Below are positions 10,410-43,070 of a stretch of 46,364 nt of DNA, piece after piece. The DNA is taken from the NCBI GenBank assembly GCA_035653255.1, contig DASRCF010000086.1, positions 1-46,364 on the forward strand. The letters run 5' to 3'. The notes under the pieces are model-generated. The model did no database searches. It was not told the DNA's origin and worked only from the letters and a program-made list of their open reading frames with translations. The first letter of the stretch is position 1; the number at the start of each line of letters is the position of its first letter. The position numbers were made by a program, and so were the translations under genes. The stretch comes from Chloroflexota bacterium (GTDB taxonomy: Bacteria; Chloroflexota; UBA5177; JAJPKF01).

Positions 10410-13076
10410 TCATCCGGTGGCCACAGCGCGAACGTTGCCGATGCCGAGGTTATGCAGAATCGCACTGCCGTTCGGTCTGAGTGGGATGAGCTGGGTGCCG
10501 TTAAGGCGGTAGTAGCGGCGGTGCGGATAGAGGCGCATGAGCCGCCGGTCGCGGTTGCGCTCATCTCTGGCCCAGATGATGTTTCCATCGAGCAAGGGCG
10601 AGTTTTGGTTGAAAACGCCGCCATAGGGCCACCAAGCCTGACGCGAGGGCTGCACCTGAAACACCAGCGCGTCATGGAGGTGGTGGCGTGCAGCTGTGTC
10701 AATAGCCACCGTGGCACCGGAGTCGAAACGGGTCAACAGAGAAATCGTGCCGGGCACATAGTTGACCATGCTGTTGATGGCGAGGACGACAGCAAGGCCG
10801 GCGGGCAGAAGCGCCGCCGCGACCGGCCTCGGCTCGCCTTCAAGCCTCACGCGTAGAGGTAGCCGGTACAGCTCCTGGAAGCCGCGCATAGTCAGGAGGC
10901 ACAGCCACGGAATGATGACGTACCAGTATCGCGGGTAGGTGTACCAGACGCCGTCGGCGAAGTAGAAGATGTAGGCGATCACCACGCTCAGGCTCGAGGC
11001 TGCGAACAGCCAGTCCCAACGGGTGGCTCGGGCGAGCAGGAAGGGCACTGCGGCGATTGCCAGGGTAACGTAGAAGGGCCAGCCGAAGAGGCCGATCTGC
11101 AGGTGCTGCAAGTCGTAGACGATATTCCAGAGCGCACGGGCAAAGTTATAGTTGGATTCATAGTGGCCGGGACCGCCGACGGTCCGCCCAAAGCCGAGGC
11201 GATCGTATGGGCGGCCGATAACGTAGGCATTGCCCAGAATTGACCCGGTGAGCACCTGGTTATAGGCGAAGTAGACAATGGCCGGAACTATGCCTCCGAT
11301 CCCTATCCAGACGACGGACAACGGCCGCTTCCAAAGAACCAACAGGAACGGCAGACACAGCACAATGGCGTCGAGCTGCCTGGTCATCACCGCCGCGCCG
11401 AATATCAATCCGGCCCCGGTGAGGTACTTCCAGCCTTCGCCGCTCAAGCGAAACCTCACGCGATCCCGATCGTGCGGCTGCGTGCGCTCCCACTGGAGCA
11501 GTAGGAGAATCGCCGAGCCGGCGAACAACCAGACGGTGGCGTGCGGGTAGAAGGAAGCGCCGACGAAGAGCAGGAACGGCGACGTCCCCGCCAGAAGCGC
11601 CGCGCCAAGCGCCAGCTTCCACCCGTAGGCCAGGCGGGCAATCAGATACAGGACCACGATTCCGGCGCCGGCCACGACTGGCCCGATCAGCCAGGGCACA
11701 TGCGCAAGCACGCCCAGTGTGAGCAGGGCCGGCCAGCCCGGGGGATACTTGCCGAAGCGGTGTCCATGTTCGATGACGACGAACAGTTGATAGAAGAACG
11801 AAGGCAATCGGGGTACGGGCGCCCACAACCGTCCCAGAGCCATGGTCTGGGCCTGGAACAGATAGGCGACCGCGTCCTGGACGTTGGGCAGGCCATGGTA
11901 GAGAACCTGCGCGATCAGGCTCATGGGCACAATTGCAATGACGCCGATGGCAACGCCGGCGAAGTCGGGCCAGCGGTCCGAGAACTTCACGCGCAGCCTA
12001 AAATCCGGCTTCCCGGTTGAAGGGAGCAGCTCTGCAACGGCCGAGGCCAAAAAGCCGAGCAGTCGATACACGGCGATGGCCATGGCGATCAGAACGAGAG
12101 CCACCAGCTCCGACGGCAGGCTGTAGCGGAGCAGCCTCTTCGCCATCTCGTCAGTCGCTGCCTGAAAGGTAGCCGTACCGTGCCCCTGCGGGGAGCGCGG
12201 ACCGTGGTTCCAATAAAGCCACCAAGCGAAGCGGCGATCCATCCGTATGGCCATGATGTAGCCGCGATCATGGGAGCCGACCCCGACAAGAACACCCTGC
12301 AGGCCGTCGGGCCGCATCAGATCGGCCGAAAGCACGAAGGTGCCATGTGGGGTGACGGGCAGGAAGCCGGCGGAGCCCGGGCTTCCCTGTAACTCGCCCC
12401 GAGGGTTGACGGCCCACGTGCCTTTCGTTTCTATGAGCCTGCCTATGTTGAGAATCGTCGGCCCGCGATGCCGGTGATGAAGTGCCAGCGTAATGTGAGT
12501 CCAGGCAGGCCCAGGCGAGATGAATCGCATGAGGCTGTCGAAGTCCGTCAGGAGGTTCGACACAATGGGCGCACCGTAGGCGCCGCTGGCCTGGACGTCG
12601 TAGGTGTCGGCCGCACCGGTGTACAGGCCGACGCGACCATGCCGGTGGTTGCTGACGTTTAGAGGGCCGCTGTTGTTGCCGACGATGGCCAGATAGCCTT
12701 GATGAGTGCTCTGAACGACGACGTGGAGCGTGTCTCCGAGTGACCAGGTATAGGCCAGAAGCACGATGACCTGAGCGGCAAAGGAGATCCTCAGGGCCGG
12801 TCGCCACGACGCCGATAGGAGAACCACCGCCGAGGAGAGGATCAGGACGGCGATAAGGACCGGATTCAGCTGCTCCTGCAGAATGAGAAGCCAGGCAGAC
12901 AGCAGCACCAGCGCCGCTGCCGTCCAGTGAATCGACCCCTTTACCAATCGGCGGCGCCGTCTCCGAGCAGCCAGACGCTCCCGTAACGGCTCTGGTCGGT
13001 GCTTCGGAGAGGGGGTAACCGTGGTCGCAACGGGCGCCACGAGCCTTCCAACAAGGCGCCTCGATAGATTAGTCAC
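10410..13076 (-). CDS. GT-C fold glycosyltransferase (ArnT/PMT_2-like) with large N-terminal extracytoplasmic insert
   Basis: 888 aa with GTG start, 27 nt after the GT2 stop. Arg-rich N-terminus, then 3 TM helices, then a soluble beta-rich segment of about 220-270 aa, then more than 10 TM helices with a PMT_2-like core (RFGKYPPGWPALL..., YFAYNQVLTGS). Confidence 0.7.
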   Translation of the reverse strand: MTNLSRRLVGRLVAPVATTVTPSPKHRPEPLRERLAARRRRRRLVKGSIHWTAAALVLLSAWLLILQEQLNPVLIAVLILSSAVVLLSASWRPALRISFAAQVIVLLAYTWSLGDTLHVVVQSTHQGYLAIVGNNSGPLNVSNHRHGRVGLYTGAADTYDVQASGAYGAPIVSNLLTDFDSLMRFISPGPAWTHITLALHHRHRGPTILNIGRLIETKGTWAVNPRGELQGSPGSAGFLPVTPHGTFVLSADLMRPDGLQGVLVGVGSHDRGYIMAIRMDRRFAWWLYWNHGPRSPQGHGTATFQAATDEMAKRLLRYSLPSELVALVLIAMAIAVYRLLGFLASAVAELLPSTGKPDFRLRVKFSDRWPDFAGVAIGVIAIVPMSLIAQVLYHGLPNVQDAVAYLFQAQTMALGRLWAPVPRLPSFFYQLFVVIEHGHRFGKYPPGWPALLTLGVLAHVPWLIGPVVAGAGIVVLYLIARLAYGWKLALGAALLAGTSPFLLFVGASFYPHATVWLFAGSAILLLLQWERTQPHDRDRVRFRLSGEGWKYLTGAGLIFGAAVMTRQLDAIVLCLPFLLVLWKRPLSVVWIGIGGIVPAIVYFAYNQVLTGSILGNAYVIGRPYDRLGFGRTVGGPGHYESNYNFARALWNIVYDLQHLQIGLFGWPFYVTLAIAAVPFLLARATRWDWLFAASSLSVVIAYIFYFADGVWYTYPRYWYVIIPWLCLLTMRGFQELYRLPLRVRLEGEPRPVAAALLPAGLAVVLAINSMVNYVPGTISLLTRFDSGATVAIDTAARHHLHDALVFQVQPSRQAWWPYGGVFNQNSPLLDGNIIWARDERNRDRRLMRLYPHRRYYRLNGTQLIPLRPNGSAILHNLGIGNVRAVATG

Positions 13077-16981: not shown

Positions 16982-17441
16982 GGATCCATCAGCCCGCGTA
17001 CTCGAGTCCTCTCGCGTAACCGTCACAAGCATTAGCGCAGCGCGCCACTGTGCTGGCCTGAAACTCTCGAAGTGGGAGCGAGGTGTTTCTCGTCCAAGCA
17101 ATTCTGACGGAAATTGAAATGACGTCGGGCCGTGCTGTGGCTATCGCCTCTCCGCCTTCCCTCCGTAGCTCTAGGTCGTCCCCGTCACGCCACCCATTCT
17201 CGATACCGCGGCTCGCATCTGTGCCACGCAAGGTCTCCGGGCCAACGATGCAGTTCAGCTATTCAGTGCACTCGCGACGCGGCTCGCCGATCCGACCTGC
17301 CGCAGCTTTGCTGCCTTCGACGGCTATTTGCGGCCGGCCACCGCCACCGAAGCCTTCGAACTCATCCCTCCTGAGGGTTAGTCAGGCGCCTTGCACCGCT
17401 CCTATAATCGTCACGACTCTGCAGGCGAAAGAGAAGGAATC

Positions 17442-17681
17442 ATGACGGTGGGACCAACGCGAGGCTTTCCGAAGGGCGTCTCCGCTCCCGCGATTCGGGC
17501 GCTGGAATCGGGGGGCTATCACGATCTCTCTGACCTCGCAAACGTACCGATTGCTGACCTTAAGAACCTCCACGGGATGGGGCCGAAGGCTGTGCGCGTG
17601 ATTCAGGCGGCGCTGGCCGAGCGCGGGTTGTCTCTCCGGGGAGGAGAGGAAGCAGATGAGTTTGGTGGTGAGGCTCGGTAA
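17442..17681 (+). CDS. small helix-hairpin-helix domain protein
   Basis: ATG 17442 follows GAGAAGGA. LSDLANVPIADLKNLHGMGPKAVRVIQAALAERG is HhH-like. A TATAAT lies at 17403-17408. Confidence 0.55.
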   Translation: MTVGPTRGFPKGVSAPAIRALESGGYHDLSDLANVPIADLKNLHGMGPKAVRVIQAALAERGLSLRGGEEADEFGGEAR

Positions 17682-17863
17682 GGCTCTGACGAATTTCGCA
17701 AGGCTGAGCCGAACTCCATACGAAAAAGAGGAGGACGCATTCGATCATCAGACGGGACGTCCTTCTCGCTGAGCTTACGAATCTGGGGGCCCCGAAATGG
17801 GGCGCGGCGATAATCGCTCCTACCGGCGCCGTCGAGTGCTGTAGGAACGAAGGTATCGTGTCC

Positions 17864-19537
17864 TCAGTCGCCGCCTTCCATGGGCATGCGGACATTGTGG
17901 CGGCGTGCTGTGGCGATGGCCTCGTCGTAGCCGGCGTCCGCGTGCCGCACCACACCGATGCCTGGATCCGTCGTCAGCACCCGGCGGATGCGGGCCTGGG
18001 CTTCGTCGGTACCGTCCGCCACGGTCACCTGACCGGCGTGGATGGCATAGCCGATGCCGACGCCGCCGCCGTGATGAACTGAGACCCAGCTGGCGCCGCC
18101 GACCGCATTGAGAAGTGCATTGAGGATAGGCCAATCGGCGATGGCATCGCTCCCGTCCTTCATCGCTTCTGTTTCGCGGTTGGGCGAGGCTACGGAGCCG
18201 GTATCGAGGTGGTCCCGGCCGATGGCCACCGGGGCTTTCAGCTCCCCGCGTCTCACCAGCTCGTTGAGTGCTACGCCGAATCTCGCCCGGTCGCCGAGTC
18301 CGAGCCAGCAGATACGGGCCGGTAGTCCTTGAAAGGCCACCTTCTCCCTGGCCAGGGTGATCCAGCGCCGAAGATGCTCGTCGTCGGGAAACAGATCCAG
18401 CACCAGCTGGTCGGTGCGGTAGATATCCTCGGGGTCTCCGGAGAGAGCCACCCAACGAAACGGGCCCTTGCCTTCACAGAACAGCGGCCGGATGAATGCC
18501 GGAGTAAATCCCGGAAAGTCGAAGGCGTCGGCGACGCCGGCAATCAACGCTTGCTGTCGGATATTGTTGCCGTAGTCAAAGACGACGGCACCCAGTCGCT
18601 GCATCTCCAGCATCGCCTCGACCTGCCGGCCCATGCTCTGTCGCGCCTGCTGGATGTAGCTTTCTGGGTTTGCCCGCCTCAGCTCCGCCGCCTCTTTGAG
18701 AGAGCAGCCTGAAGGGATGTAGCCGTTGAGCGGGTCGTGCGCCGAGGTCTGATCGGTGACGACATCCGGAAGCCGCCGGCCCAGGATTTCCGGGAAGATG
18801 TCGGCCGCGTTGGCAACCAGACCGATCGAGAGTGGCGTTCCCGCGGCAAGCGACTCGTCGGCCCACCTCAGCGCCTCGTCGAGCGATGCCGTCTGGCGGT
18901 CGCAGTACCGGGTGGCAATGCGACGTTCTATGCGCGCGGGATCGACCTCGACGTCGATGACGACGCCCCCGTTCATGGTGACGGCAAGCGGCTGCGCTCC
19001 TCCCATGCCGCCCATCCCACCCGTGAGGACCAGCCGGCCGGCGAGCGAACCGCCGAAGTGTTGTGCGGCCAGAGCCGAAAGGGTTTCGTATGTTCCCTGC
19101 AGGATGCCCTGCGTGCCGATGTAGATCCACGACCCGGCGGTCATCTGCCCATACATCGTGAGGCCTCGAGCCTCGAGGTCCCAGAAGTTCTCCCAGGTCG
19201 CCCATGCCGGTACCAGCATGGCGTTGGATATCAGAACTCGGGGCGCCAGCTCGTGCGTCCTAAAGATTGCAACCGGCTTGCCGGACTGGATCAGGAGGGT
19301 TTCGTCATTCTCCAGATCTTTGAGCGAGCGGACGATGGCGTCGAAGCATTCCCAGTTGCGAGCCGCCTTGCCGCTGCCCCCGTAGACGATCAGCTCCTCC
19401 GGCTTCTCGGCCACCTCAGGATCGAGGTTGTTCATGAGCAGCCTCAGCGCGGCCTCCTGCTGCCATCCCTTGCAGCTCAGCTCTGTACCTCGTGGCGCGC
19501 GGACGACTCGCGGCTGATGGAGCTGCTCAGTCGCCAT
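17864..19537 (-). CDS. hutU: urocanate hydratase
   Basis: 557 aa, collinear with urocanase: [32 protein letters not shown]. Confidence 0.95.
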
Positions 19538-33978: not shown

Positions 33979-34905
33979 ATGGCGACGACAACAAAGGAAC
34001 TTCCGCTCCCTGAGTGGTTCCGGGATCCGGATATCAGGGAAGAGATTCGAGCGAGGCTGCGCCGCTTCCTCCAGCTTCCGGTTGCCCTGGCTTCCTTGGT
34101 GCTGCTGCTGTTCGCCGTTATGGAGCTCATGGGAAGTGTCAATCGCCAGTCAGAGTACCAGGTCACGGTTTTGGGGTGGGCTCTTTGGGCATTCATCGCC
34201 GCTGAATTCCTGACGCAGCTCCTCCTCGCCTCGGACAAGCTCAGGTTTCTTAAGGCGAATTGGCTGCTGGCGGTAGTGGTGGTCATTCCGGTTTTGCGCG
34301 TGCTGACCGCCCTCCGCTTGATATCCCTGACCCGCGGCCTTCTGACCGCGCGGCTGGCCCTGAGCGGGGGACGCAACTCAACCGCGTTTATCAGAATCCT
34401 GCGGCGCCGGCATCTGGGGCAGCTCTCCCTGGTCAGCGTGGGCGTGGTCCTGATGGCCGCGGAGCTAGTGGGGATAAGCGAGATCGGCGTGCATGGCGCC
34501 AACATCGGAAATTTCGGCAACGCACTGTATTGGGCGGCGGCAACACTGACCACTGTTGGGTCCAACTTCTACCCGACGACCACCGGCGGAAAGGTCGTCG
34601 CCATTCTACTGGACATGTATGGAGTGGCTGCCTTCACCTATCTGGCCGCGTCGTTGGCCTCCGTTCTGGTTGGGTCAGATCGGGCGACCGGTGCAGCTGC
34701 TCAACCCTCTCCGTCACCGCCCGAGGCTGCCGGCAAGGAGCCGGCAAGTGCCGAGCCTCAGGAGACGCCCCTCTCTATGATGTCCCTGGCCGAGGAGATC
34801 CGGTCTTTGAGCCGGGCTCTGAATGAGCTGCGGGCCACCCTCCAGGCTCACCCGGCGTGGCCCGACGCTCGAGGGGAGAATCCGCCCCCACCGTCAGGGA
34901 GCTGA
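33979..34905 (+). CDS. 6TM ion-transport (voltage-gated-like) channel protein with non-canonical pore filter
   Basis: GAGGAGG upstream. S4-like VLRVLTALRLISLTRGLLTAR, pore NALYWAAATLTTVGSNFYP, then an inner helix. Pro/Ala linker and a C-terminal coiled-coil-like SLAEEIRSLSRALNELRATLQ. Confidence 0.75.
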   Translation: MATTTKELPLPEWFRDPDIREEIRARLRRFLQLPVALASLVLLLFAVMELMGSVNRQSEYQVTVLGWALWAFIAAEFLTQLLLASDKLRFLKANWLLAVVVVIPVLRVLTALRLISLTRGLLTARLALSGGRNSTAFIRILRRRHLGQLSLVSVGVVLMAAELVGISEIGVHGANIGNFGNALYWAAATLTTVGSNFYPTTTGGKVVAILLDMYGVAAFTYLAASLASVLVGSDRATGAAAQPSPSPPEAAGKEPASAEPQETPLSMMSLAEEIRSLSRALNELRATLQAHPAWPDARGENPPPPSGS

Positions 34906-34950
34906 CGCCCTGATTCGTTGCTTGGGCGCTAATGTGAGGTGGGAGGCGCC

Positions 34951-35373
34951 ATGAACGAGAAGCCGTTGGTCAACCGGGTCCGCTCCACCTCAACGCGAGT
35001 GCCGCTGAGGGCTCTCAACCAGGTGAGAAGTCACCACTTCGTCATCGACAGCGCACACGGACCCGACGAGGAGATAACTCCGATCGACGCCTTCCTGTCC
35101 GGCATCTCGTCCTGTGCCGTACATCAGATGGAGATGTTCGCCGAGCAACAGGGTGTGAAGCTCGAGCAGGCGGTAGCCACAATCGAAGCCTTCCGCAGGC
35201 CTGAAGACCCGACCTTCTTCGACCGTGTCGACCTCCACCTCGAGCTTTTCGGGCCCGACCAGGAGCAGGCGGAGCAACTGGTGGAGGCCTTCAAAGGCCG
35301 CTGACCGCTGTATCGTACGGTCGCCGTGGCGACCGCGGTTCACGTGGACGTCGTCGCCCGACCGGCCTCCTGA
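34951..35373 (+). CDS. OsmC-family protein with in-frame TGA at 35302-35304 (candidate selenoprotein, or nonsense-truncated gene ending at 35304)
   Basis: ATG 34951 follows GGGAGG. First family Cys present (GISSCAVHQ). The ORF stops at ...EAFKGR-TGA, and the same frame continues PLYRTVAVATAVHVDVVARPAS to a stop at 35371-35373, which restores the family C-terminus. Confidence 0.6.
35305..35338 (+). other. SECIS-compatible stem-loop immediately 3' of the in-frame TGA
   Basis: GGTCGC (35319-35324), loop cgtg, GCGACC (35329-35334), flanked by CCGC (35305-35308) and GCGG (35335-35338). The loop begins 21 nt after the UGA and contains GU. Confidence 0.35.
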
Positions 35374-35602: not shown

Positions 35603-35893
35603 CTAAGCTTCCACCGGTTTCAGGTAGCCCTCGTCAGTGAAGAGGCGCTTGGCTTCGTCGAGCGTGATGTCCGAAGGCGGCAGGATCAGGTCCGATCCCA
35701 CCACCTGCTCGTCGGGCACTTCGGTCCCGTTGTTGATGACGTAGTCCACGAGGGCACTGAGCTTGCCCGCGAAGGCTTCCGCGTCATCACCCTGAACCGC
35801 GTCGTAGAGCTGCCGGTCGAGGTCCTCGAGAATAGGCCGAGCGTCCTGGTCGAGCTCATACTGCCCTTCGCCCCCCTGGATGCGGACGATCAT
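35603..35893 (-). CDS. pspAA: PspA-associated protein PspAA
   Basis: MIVRIQGGEGQYELD...LILPPSDITLDEAKRLFTDEGY matches my recollection of the PspAA family. Overlaps the pspA stop by 4 nt. Confidence 0.75.
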   Translation of the reverse strand: MIVRIQGGEGQYELDQDARPILEDLDRQLYDAVQGDDAEAFAGKLSALVDYVINNGTEVPDEQVVGSDLILPPSDITLDEAKRLFTDEGYLKPVEA

Positions 35894-36666
35894 GCGTCGG
35901 GAGCCTTCCCTTGCGCCTGTGCCGGCTCGGGCTCACCCTCGGTCAGCTTTGGTTGGGCACCGGGCGATGGCAATCCCATCTGTTCCTTCATCTGCTCCAG
36001 CTGCAGGTCGACAGAGTTTCCCTGGTCGAGCTGCTTGAGCTTTCGATCGAGGTCGTCCTCGTTGCTGGTGTAGTCGGTCAAGGCGCCTGAATCCATCAGC
36101 TCGTCGATCGCACCGGCCCTCGCCTGGAGCTGCTGGGTCTTGTCCTGGGCGCGCTGGACGGCGAGTCCCACGTCGGCGAACTCTTCCGAGATGCCCGTCG
36201 CCGCCTCGCCGATCTTCACCTGCGCGTTGGCGGCGTTGTACTGCGCCTTGATGACCTCTTTCTGAGTGCGGAAGGACTCGATTTTGGCCTGCAAACGCTC
36301 CTGGGCATCGGTCAACTTCTGCTGCTGCTCCTCCAAGCCGGCAATCTGCTGGCTCAGACCGTTGAGCTGGTCGTCGATGACCTGCTTGCGCTGCAGCGCC
36401 TCGCGGGCGAGATCCTCTTGTCCCGCCGAGAGTGCCTGCCGTGCCTGGTCCTCACGTTTCTGCGACTCAGCCCGCAACTTGTCCGCCTCGAGCTGGGTGC
36501 GACGTTTGGAGGTCACGAGCTCGGCCAAGCCCCGCTTGACGTTCTGAAGCAGCTCCAGCTGCTTCTGGTAGGAGTAGTCCAACGTCTCGTTGGGATTTTC
36601 GGCTCTATCCAGGACCTTGTTCATCTTGGCCCCGAATATGGTGTTCATTCGTCGGAAAACGCTCAT
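35890..36666 (-). CDS. pspA: PspA/IM30 (Vipp1) family protein
   Basis: MSVFRRMNTIFGAKMNKVLDRAENPNETLDYSYQKQLELLQNVKRGLAELVTSKRR, followed by long coiled-coil sequence. Confidence 0.93.
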   Translation of the reverse strand: MSVFRRMNTIFGAKMNKVLDRAENPNETLDYSYQKQLELLQNVKRGLAELVTSKRRTQLEADKLRAESQKREDQARQALSAGQEDLAREALQRKQVIDDQLNGLSQQIAGLEEQQQKLTDAQERLQAKIESFRTQKEVIKAQYNAANAQVKIGEAATGISEEFADVGLAVQRAQDKTQQLQARAGAIDELMDSGALTDYTSNEDDLDRKLKQLDQGNSVDLQLEQMKEQMGLPSPGAQPKLTEGEPEPAQAQGKAPDA

Positions 36667-41693: not shown

Positions 41694-43070
41694 GTGTTCT
41701 TCCAGCAAATCGTTGACCAGGACCTGGGTTGCGCATCCTACATCGTGGCCTCCTCGAGTGAACAGACCTGTTTGATCGTCGACCCTCGATGGGAGATCGA
41801 GCCCTATCTCGAGGTGATTCACACGCAAGGGTTCACGGTGTCGGGTATTGTGGAGACCCACACTCATGCCGATCACGTCTCGGGGCACGGGAGACTGGCC
41901 GAGGCAACCGGCGCCCCGATCTACATTCACGAGTCCGCGGACGTCGAGTACCCCCATCGCAGCCTGAGAGATGGCGACGTCATCCGGCTGGCCGAGGTGT
42001 CACTGCACGTCCTGCACACGCCGGGACACCGACCCGAGCACATAGCGCTGGCTGTTGAGGACGGGGCAAGGGGCGCCGATCCGTGGCTCGTGATGACCGG
42101 AGATAGTCTGCTGGTGGGAGACGTCGCCCGGCCAGATCTGGCGGTTGATGGAATCCAGGGGGCCGAGCTGCTGTTTCAGAGCTTGCACGAGAAGCTGCTG
42201 ACCCTGCCCGAATTCACGCAGGTCTATCCCGCACACCTCGCCGGCTCGCTCTGCGGGCGCGTCGACAGTCACGTCTCGGGCACGACATTGGGCTACGAGC
42301 GGAGATACAACGCCGCGCTTACCGTCGCCGAGCCGGAAGCCTTCGTCGCCTTCATGAACCGGGATCTTCCGCAGCGACCACCAAACATGGAACGAGTTGT
42401 GGCTCTCAATCGCGGGCCACTCAACAGCAGAGCTGACTTTCCAGCGCGCCTCTCACCGGAGGACGTATCGGCCCTGGATGACTCGATCCTCCGACTCGAC
42501 GTCCGCCCATCCGACGATTACCTCTGCCTCCACATCCCGGGATCCGTCCATGTTCCGGTTTCGGGTTCTCAGTTCGGCACCCGAGCGGGTTTCGTGGTGG
42601 CGGTTGACACGGAGCTGGTGTTGGTTTCCCAGGGAGACGACGACTGCCGGGCTGCGGTGAATGGGCTGCGGGCGGTTGGGTTCGAGAAGCTGCGCGGCTT
42701 TCTGCGTTTCGAGGACTGGATCGAATCGGGACGAGAGGTCGCCTCTATTCCGACCATTTCTGCCCGGGATCTCAGCTTCCATCTGGGGCGGGACGACGTC
42801 GCGGTCCTCGACGTTCGGGAACCGTCCGAGTGGAAGCAGGGAGTCGTCGAGGGGGCGCAGCTGCTGCCGTACCATCGCATCATGGATCTAGGGGTTCCGC
42901 TTCCCCAGGCCGCATTGGTGGCAACGGTGTGCGAATCGGGCGTCCGGAGCGCCATCGCGGCCGCTCTGCTCGAACGGCGGGGACTGTCGAACGCGGCCAA
43001 CGTTTCCGGAGGGATGACAGCTTGGGTGGAAGCGGGTCTTCCTGCGGTTCCACCACCCGACAGGAAGTAG
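41694..43070 (+). CDS. MBL-fold persulfide-dioxygenase-like protein fused to two rhodanese domains
   Basis: GTG 41694 follows GGAGG. ETHTHADHVSG, HTPGHRPEH. The middle rhodanese has a degenerate loop (VLVSQGDDD, no Cys). The C-terminal rhodanese has the active loop VCESGVRS. Confidence 0.85.
   Translation: MFFQQIVDQDLGCASYIVASSSEQTCLIVDPRWEIEPYLEVIHTQGFTVSGIVETHTHADHVSGHGRLAEATGAPIYIHESADVEYPHRSLRDGDVIRLAEVSLHVLHTPGHRPEHIALAVEDGARGADPWLVMTGDSLLVGDVARPDLAVDGIQGAELLFQSLHEKLLTLPEFTQVYPAHLAGSLCGRVDSHVSGTTLGYERRYNAALTVAEPEAFVAFMNRDLPQRPPNMERVVALNRGPLNSRADFPARLSPEDVSALDDSILRLDVRPSDDYLCLHIPGSVHVPVSGSQFGTRAGFVVAVDTELVLVSQGDDDCRAAVNGLRAVGFEKLRGFLRFEDWIESGREVASIPTISARDLSFHLGRDDVAVLDVREPSEWKQGVVEGAQLLPYHRIMDLGVPLPQAALVATVCESGVRSAIAAALLERRGLSNAANVSGGMTAWVEAGLPAVPPPDRK

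Follow-up and report, generated by a model that had tools for sequence, protein, structure and literature searches.

A probable selenoprotein of the OsmC/Ohr family with UGA at the position of the resolving cysteine

In the Ohr proteins, Cp-SOH formed at the peroxidatic cysteine (Cp) condenses with the resolving cysteine (Cr) to a disulfide, which is subsequently reduced by lipoylated proteins, and the residues Arg19 and Glu51 activate Cp (PMC5962072). Selenocysteine-containing relatives of these proteins, the OsmC-like selenoproteins, became known through the survey of the Sargasso Sea marine metagenome (Zhang et al. 2005). The protein shown in the supplement of that survey has Sec at the position of the first Cys, in the sequence AGIGF-u-LLT ("UxxT"), and Cys at the second position, in the sequence KQG-C-FAEN (Zhang et al. 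2005). In a catalogue from 2026, which lists 119 selenoprotein families and subfamilies split by the position of Sec, there is one OsmC-like entry, and it is of the UxxT type. The initial annotation of the locus described here had noted that OsmC-like selenoproteins were listed in metagenomic surveys, which is correct, but the proteins listed there form another subfamily, in which it is the first Cys that is replaced by Sec.

The locus was analyzed in a 46,364-nt stretch of Chloroflexota DNA (hereafter, the window). The data indicate that the region 34951-35373 very probably encodes a selenoprotein, in which the UGA at 35302-35304 is decoded as Sec118 of a 140-residue protein of the OsmC/Ohr family. 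This reading, put forward as a candidate in the initial annotation, is supported by the presence of TGA in 87 of 89 related loci, by the conservation of the reading frame downstream, and by synonymous constraint on the stem of a hairpin that follows the UGA. In the comparison with the Sargasso protein, its U aligns with C55 of the window protein. The NCBIfam model NF041052, named 'OsmC-related (seleno)protein', has a cutoff of 95 bits, and the Sargasso protein scores 157.4 bits against it, while the window protein scores 29.4 bits; none of the other NCBIfam models claims the window protein. The score below the cutoff, together with the proposed location of Sec at the other redox position, indicates that the window protein is not a member of the published family of OsmC-like selenoproteins.

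Organization of the gene and its surroundings

The gene is located on the forward strand and starts with the ATG at 34951, which is equivalent to the start methionine of the homologues. Direct reading of the sequence shows a Shine–Dalgarno-like GGGAGG at 34941-34946, 4 nt 5′ of this ATG. Codons 1 to 117 (34951-35301) match the Pfam OsmC family (PF02566) and end with LVEAFKGR, after which comes the in-frame TGA at 35302-35304, which is proposed to encode selenocysteine as residue 118, where Ohr/OsmC have their resolving Cys. The same frame continues for 22 codons (35305-35370) as PLYRTVAVATAVHVDVVARPAS, which is kept in frame in all relatives, and reaches the true stop codon TGA at 35371-35373. 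The course of the reading frame through the TGA to the second stop is thus as the initial annotation had described it, and so is the presence of the first conserved Cys, which is encoded by the TGT at codon 55 (35113-35115), in the sequence GISSCAVHQ, and aligns with the Ohr Cp in 1n2f. Readthrough of the UGA was also claimed to restore the normal OsmC length, and the resulting 140-residue protein scored 61.7 bits against PF02566, compared with 47.9 bits for the truncated one (cutoff of 27.5 bits). The segment following the UGA hence adds 14 bits to the Pfam score, and the coverage of the model extends from positions 1-80 to positions 1-96 out of 100.

The same truncated reading frame is encoded by four contigs on record. 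The contig L369, which was assembled independently (SRR5579884), is 100% identical to the window over 521 nt, including the TGA, and this identity indicates that the base call, including the A at 35304, is reliable and does not result from an assembly error.

The gene is preceded on the same strand, with 46 nt in between, by a K+-channel-like gene (33979-34905). Directly on its 3′ side there is a convergent PspAA–PspA (phage-shock/IM30) gene pair at 35603-36666 on the reverse strand, followed by a PAP2 phosphatase gene, and this layout is the same in the contig L369. Elsewhere in the window, the 760-bp region 17101-17864, between the amidohydrolase and urocanase genes of a histidine-utilization cluster, is without a confident gene in calling based on GC3. 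The forward-strand gene at 41694-43070, which adjoins the UPF0047 and Hsp20 genes, encodes a fusion of a metallo-beta-lactamase fold with rhodanese, an architecture like that of persulfide dioxygenases. Rhodanese domains are a known context of selenoproteins; this fusion gene has no in-frame TGA, and no further selenoprotein candidates were found within the window.

Related loci and the protein fold

To compare the locus with its relatives, 89 related loci were collected, which comprised the DNA of relatives found in the protein search and 80 loci from reference genomes. The relatives from the protein search were 42-77% identical to the window protein, and nearly all of them were annotated as proteins of 113-121 residues, ending at the UGA column. 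The codon in this column was TGA in 87 of the 89 loci and TGC in two (L008 and L041), while neither TAA nor TAG was present in any of the 89. The terminal stop codons of the same genes were, on the other hand, of all three kinds (45 TGA, 28 TAG and 11 TAA; n=84). The frame downstream of the UGA is conserved as PLY[RK][TA]VA[VA]AT, after which the residues alternate as in a beta-strand. It is free of frameshifts, and across the family 19-39 codons, with a mode of 21, come after the UGA.

The pairing of Sec with Cys in this column was also seen in a library of 1.84 billion representative proteins, in which 185 clusters matched at E <= 1e-10. Among the best of these matches 58 end exactly at the UGA column and 59 continue beyond it; 58 of the latter have Cys at the UGA column, and the Cys forms run on as CPLY.... 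Such pairing of Sec and Cys in one column is typical of genuine selenoprotein families.

The carriers of the family include Chloroflexota, Methylomirabilota, Dormibacterota and others, from soil and groundwater. The nearest OsmC relatives of the window gene are from Chloroflexota, and its closest relative in the reference genomes is the locus L009. The urocanase of the window likewise gave a tentative placement in Chloroflexota, with a best match of 79% to a MAG of this phylum. The OsmC-TGA gene was also found in MAGs labelled as Nitrosotalea (an archaeon), Verrucomicrobiia, Bacillota, Planctomycetota and Binatus (L081, L084, L057, L075 and L044, respectively); because these genes are near to the Methylomirabilota or Dormibacterota versions, mis-binning or horizontal transfer is likely. 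The OsmC gene has no conserved neighbor that might point to its reductant: at most 9 of 81 loci had a neighboring gene in common, and the highest-ranking cluster in this comparison was an antisense artefact.

The protein has the OsmC/Ohr fold, as determined by the Pfam match, the search of PDB sequences, and the Foldseek analysis of a Cys-form model. In the phmmer alignments with PDB sequences C55 corresponds to the peroxidatic Cys of P. aeruginosa Ohr (Cys60, in GYSA-C-F), and the UGA corresponds to the resolving Cys (Cys124 of Ohr, in QV-C-PYS, and the Cys of KR-C-PAHNT in 1lql). These alignments, along with the occurrence of TGA in 87 relatives and TGC in two, agree with the original placement of the TGA at the conserved C-terminal Cys. 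The similarity to the solved OsmC/Ohr members was low, with 13-22% identity and the best phmmer E-value of 2.6e-4. The AlphaFold model of the Cys-form homologue P0006 (pLDDT of 84, pTM of 0.79) has the first Cys on a long central helix and the second Cys at the junction that precedes a short helix and the final beta-strand, which both have pLDDT values of about 95. When this model was used in Foldseek, all 47 matches at E <= 1e-3 were OsmC/Ohr structures. The alignment of the family additionally showed that Arg20 is invariant, Glu40 is nearly invariant, and position 46 is always occupied by Asp or Glu. Some Cys-form proteins of the library, including P0009, P0064, P0068, P0098 and P0115, have 325-714 residues and consist of 2-4 tandem OsmC-like repeats. 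All such tandem proteins are Cys forms with a CPIYTT motif, and their concatenated architecture is unusual; the OsmC fold is normally a domain-swapped homodimer.

Since the tail in the P0006 model consists of a helix and a strand of the core, a product truncated at the UGA would miss both of them, as well as the second redox residue. This bears on the possibility that translation genuinely terminates at the TGA, which would give a functional OsmC-like protein of 117 residues with one Cys, and that the conservation downstream serves, for example, RNA stability, a terminator hairpin, or a small ORF. Such an explanation would be consistent with the products of 113-121 residues annotated by gene callers and in databases, and some truncated product is expected in any case, given that Sec decoding is never fully efficient (PMC4513850). 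However, the internal stop is exclusively TGA, whereas the terminal stops use all three codons, and the sequence downstream is conserved as an in-frame protein, which matches the C-terminal 16 positions of the Pfam OsmC model. The Cys forms continue directly with CPLY..., the tail corresponds to the helix and core beta-strand predicted with pLDDT of about 95 in the Cys-form model, and a search for a terminator-like site found none. These observations make genuine termination very improbable, and the conserved frame downstream shows that the orthologues do not truly end at the TGA.

The stem–loop downstream of the UGA

The published model of the bacterial SECIS (bSECIS) requires a loop of 3-9 nt with a G in its first two positions, a stem of 4-16 bp, a distance of 16-37 nt from the UGA, and an MFE of -7.5 kcal/mol or lower (PMC13188914). 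The hairpin of this type in the window gene, located at 35318-35335 on the forward strand, has the sequence GGTCGC-CGTG-GCGACC at 35319-35334, in which 35319-35324 pair with 35329-35334 and the loop CGUG occupies 35325-35328. With the additional C35318:G35335 pair the stem has 7 bp. The distance from the UGA to the loop is 20 nt and the MFE is -11.5 kcal/mol, and hence the 4-nt loop with its G, the stem of 6-7 bp, the spacing and the MFE all agree with the model. A hairpin at this place had been reported in the initial annotation, and its perfect 6-bp core and its spacing within the bSECIS range stood up in the comparison with related loci. The lower-stem extension CCGC/GCGG, which had been proposed along with it, was rejected, because it is not conserved in the relatives.

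Considered in the window sequence alone, the hairpin is not thermodynamically significant, and this candidate line of evidence was rejected: single-sequence folding of the 65-nt region was no better than that of shuffled sequences (z = 0.28). A rule of the bSECIS type was also passed by 3 of 33 in-frame TGA sites in GC3-rich frames of the window. As the hairpin alone is within chance in a GC-rich sequence, its significance comes from the comparative data. No match to the hairpin beyond chance hits was found in Rfam, in scans at the gathering and at permissive thresholds.

The stem GGUCGC/GCGACC is essentially invariant in the 84 TGA loci that were long enough for this analysis. The conserved stem is the 6-bp core, and the seventh C:G pair is present in 38 of 82 distinct sequences. 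The loop is variable among the 84 TGA loci (GGUC in 49, CGUG in 20, GGUG in five, AGUU in four, and others), and a G is present in its first two positions in 84 of 84 loci, while the MFE of the hairpin lies within the limit of the model in 83 of these 84. Because the conservation of the protein (T-V-A-V-A-T) could explain a part of the invariance of the stem, the third-position entropy was measured at conserved fourfold-degenerate codons. The data showed entropies of 0.13, 0.16, 0.16 and 0.00 bits for the four stem codons, compared with 0.93-1.84 bits for 31 columns elsewhere in the gene, while the two loop codons located between the stem codons had values of 1.09 and 1.17 bits. Synonymous sites are thus frozen in the stem and free in the loop, which means that selection acts at the RNA level and is confined to the stem. 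In the loci L025 and L086, the latter of which lies on the chromosome OZ250185.1, the stem is GGUUGC/GCAACC, with a compensatory change of C:G to U:A at pair 27-36, in which both substitutions are synonymous, and this pair is not broken on one side only in any locus. As the stem is almost invariant, true covariation is seen at this one pair in these two loci. In the Cys-form loci the stem is mismatched (L008) or absent (L041).

The comparative data also bear on the pseudogene explanation mentioned in the initial annotation, according to which the TGA arose recently by a nonsense mutation of TGC or TGT in a two-Cys OsmC gene and the hairpin is fortuitous. While this would agree with the chance-level folding of the single sequence (z = 0.28, and the rule holds at 3 of 33 comparable sites) and with the lack of Sec machinery within the 46-kb window, 87 of 89 loci, from several phyla and at 42-79% protein identity, have TGA in this column. 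The frame downstream is intact in these loci, without frameshifts or additional stops, synonymous change is constrained in the stem, and the sequence is identical in the independent assembly L369. The related loci are also too divergent to be artefacts assembled from one sequence. Hence, a recent nonsense mutation is excluded for practical purposes, and the probability that remains for a pseudogene is negligible.

When compared with the SECIS elements of the E. coli fdhF type and the consensus bSECIS, the hairpin of the family is similar in being located in the coding sequence right after the UGA, and in having a small apical loop containing G and an upper stem rich in G+C. Its loop, which is mostly NGUN or GGUC, also resembles the fdhF loop with G23 and U24 (PMC8659212). 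In contrast to these elements, the conserved part of the family hairpin is very short (a stem of 6-7 bp and a 4-nt loop), and it has neither a conserved bulged U nor a conserved lower stem. The very compact and almost invariant 16-nt stem–loop could provide a convenient minimal SECIS for studies of SelB recognition in non-model phyla.

Proposed selenocysteine decoding, predicted chemistry and comparison with known systems

No tRNA, and hence no tRNA-Sec, was found by ARAGORN in the 46-kb window, and the Pfam analysis of the 38 called window genes did not reveal any sel genes. In tblastn searches, probes of E. coli SelA, SelB and SelD gave no matches, either in the window or in the DNA flanking the OsmC loci; these probes were validated by strong matches beside tRNA-Sec elsewhere. 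In one of the carriers, the 307-kb contig L014 from a MAG labelled Proteobacteria, a tRNA-Sec gene (10585-10683 on the reverse strand) is located 170 nt downstream of the OsmC-TGA gene, and no selA, selB or selD is present within the 10-kb flanks. The other neighbors on this contig include a molybdopterin oxidoreductase, an ECF sigma factor, and a PrkA/YhbH/SpoVR cluster.

A pattern scan of the reference genomes for tRNA-Sec gave at least 120 matches, and ARAGORN called a tRNA-Sec in all 120 of those listed. Among the matches listed, a tRNA-Sec and an OsmC-TGA gene occurred in the same assembly in two cases (L102 with L020, and L189 with L009), while about 0.05 shared assemblies would be expected by chance under independence, a value which is approximate, as the pattern is biased to GC-rich lineages. 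Together with L014, a tRNA-Sec was thus found in at least three genomes that carry the family (those of L014, L020 and L009). The scan of the reference genomes based on SelA gave no assembly in common with the OsmC loci among the 600 candidates listed. The tRNA-Sec sequences were too variable, even within Methylomirabilota, for a lineage-specific pattern. In a Chloroflexia MAG (L137:1387-2563, reverse strand), tblastn matched the selA gene beside tRNA-Sec as two segments that differ in frame, which suggests a frameshift, resulting either from a sequencing error or from decay of the Sec pathway.

The occurrence of tRNA-Sec in three carrier genomes also argues against readthrough or reassignment of the UGA without selenium, in which a suppressor or near-cognate tRNA would insert Trp, Gly or Cys. 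The UGA-C context, which is leaky, could be seen as favoring such readthrough; all of the 84 loci have this C, which is also the first base of a conserved Pro codon. However, of the 39 other called genes of the window 11 end with TGA as their normal stop codon, as do 45 of 84 genes of the family, which indicates that the code is not reassigned. Moreover, the homologous residue is a redox-active Cys, which is a known site for Sec substitution, and a conserved hairpin of the SelB type, with G in the loop and canonical spacing, would be needless for decoding without selenium. Thus, readthrough of this kind appears about as improbable as genuine termination at the TGA, and the decoding of the UGA as Sec is the preferred explanation.

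In the proposed mechanism of Sec decoding, the hairpin 20 nt 3′ of the UGA would act as a bacterial SECIS, to which SelB with GTP and Sec-tRNA(Sec) would bind and, competing with RF2, deliver Sec at the UGA. If translation ended at the UGA instead, the product would have 117 residues and be without the last helix and strand. The full-length protein is a predicted thiol/selenol peroxidase, in which, by homology with Ohr, Cys55 with the invariant Arg20 nearby would reduce an organic hydroperoxide and be converted to Cys-SOH. The alignment of C55 with Cp and of the UGA with Cr, as well as the presence of Arg20 and of the acidic residues 40 and 46, suggests that Cys55 is the peroxidatic residue and that Sec118 is the resolving rather than the peroxidatic one. 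Sec118 could then attack Cys55-SOH, and the resulting intramolecular selenenylsulfide would be reduced by a thiol reductant, the role played by lipoylated proteins in Ohr. The presence of Sec at the resolving position might make the resolution faster, shield Cys55 from over-oxidation, and render the oxidized bond easier to reduce. The reverse assignment, with Sec118 as the primary nucleophile, is also conceivable.

To our knowledge, it is nearly always the attacking catalytic Cys whose place is taken by Sec. If the assignment of Sec118 is correct, Sec would have entered one fold twice and independently, once at either redox position, which would constitute a natural test of selenium as the attacking nucleophile versus the resolving or leaving-group partner. 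A Cys-first/Sec-second family next to a sister family with the opposite order would allow nucleophilicity, resistance to over-oxidation, and reducibility of the Se–S bond to be separated. As gene callers cut all members of the family at 113-121 residues, and there is no NCBIfam or Rfam model for it, the selenoproteomes of abundant soil phyla are under-counted, and the proteins of the family are annotated without their second active-site residue.

The window family is almost certainly a selenoprotein family, and it represents an OsmC subfamily of its own, in which Sec would take the place of the second redox Cys, a position absent from the published catalogues searched. In the part of the literature covered by full-text searches, a form of OsmC selenoprotein with Sec at the second Cys was not described, and its priority is accordingly uncertain. 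We consider the chances to be roughly balanced that this is an uncatalogued and widespread subfamily, mostly in the Sec form, of two-Cys OsmC/Ohr peroxidases with Sec at the resolving position, and the mirror image of the marine form.

The window family shares its fold with the known Ohr and OsmC proteins (Xylella Ohr 1ZB8/4XX2, P. aeruginosa Ohr 1N2F and E. coli OsmC 1QWI), and in all of them the first Cys is on the central helix and the second redox residue is in a C-P motif about 20 residues before the C-terminus. Its invariant Arg near residue 20 also appears, as judged from the alignment, to resemble Arg19 of Ohr (PMC5962072). The difference is that the resolving Cys of Ohr/OsmC is replaced in the window family by the proposed Sec. 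The protein described by NF041052 and the Sargasso sequence has the same PF02566 domain and a similar size (137-144 aa), and it is, like the window protein, a predicted thiol/selenol peroxidase, in which one Sec, encoded by a UGA with a bSECIS behind it, is paired with a Cys at the remaining redox position. On the other hand, Sec comes first and Cys second in that marine protein, whereas in the window family, which occurs in soil and groundwater Chloroflexota, Methylomirabilota and Dormibacterota, the Cys comes first and the UGA second.
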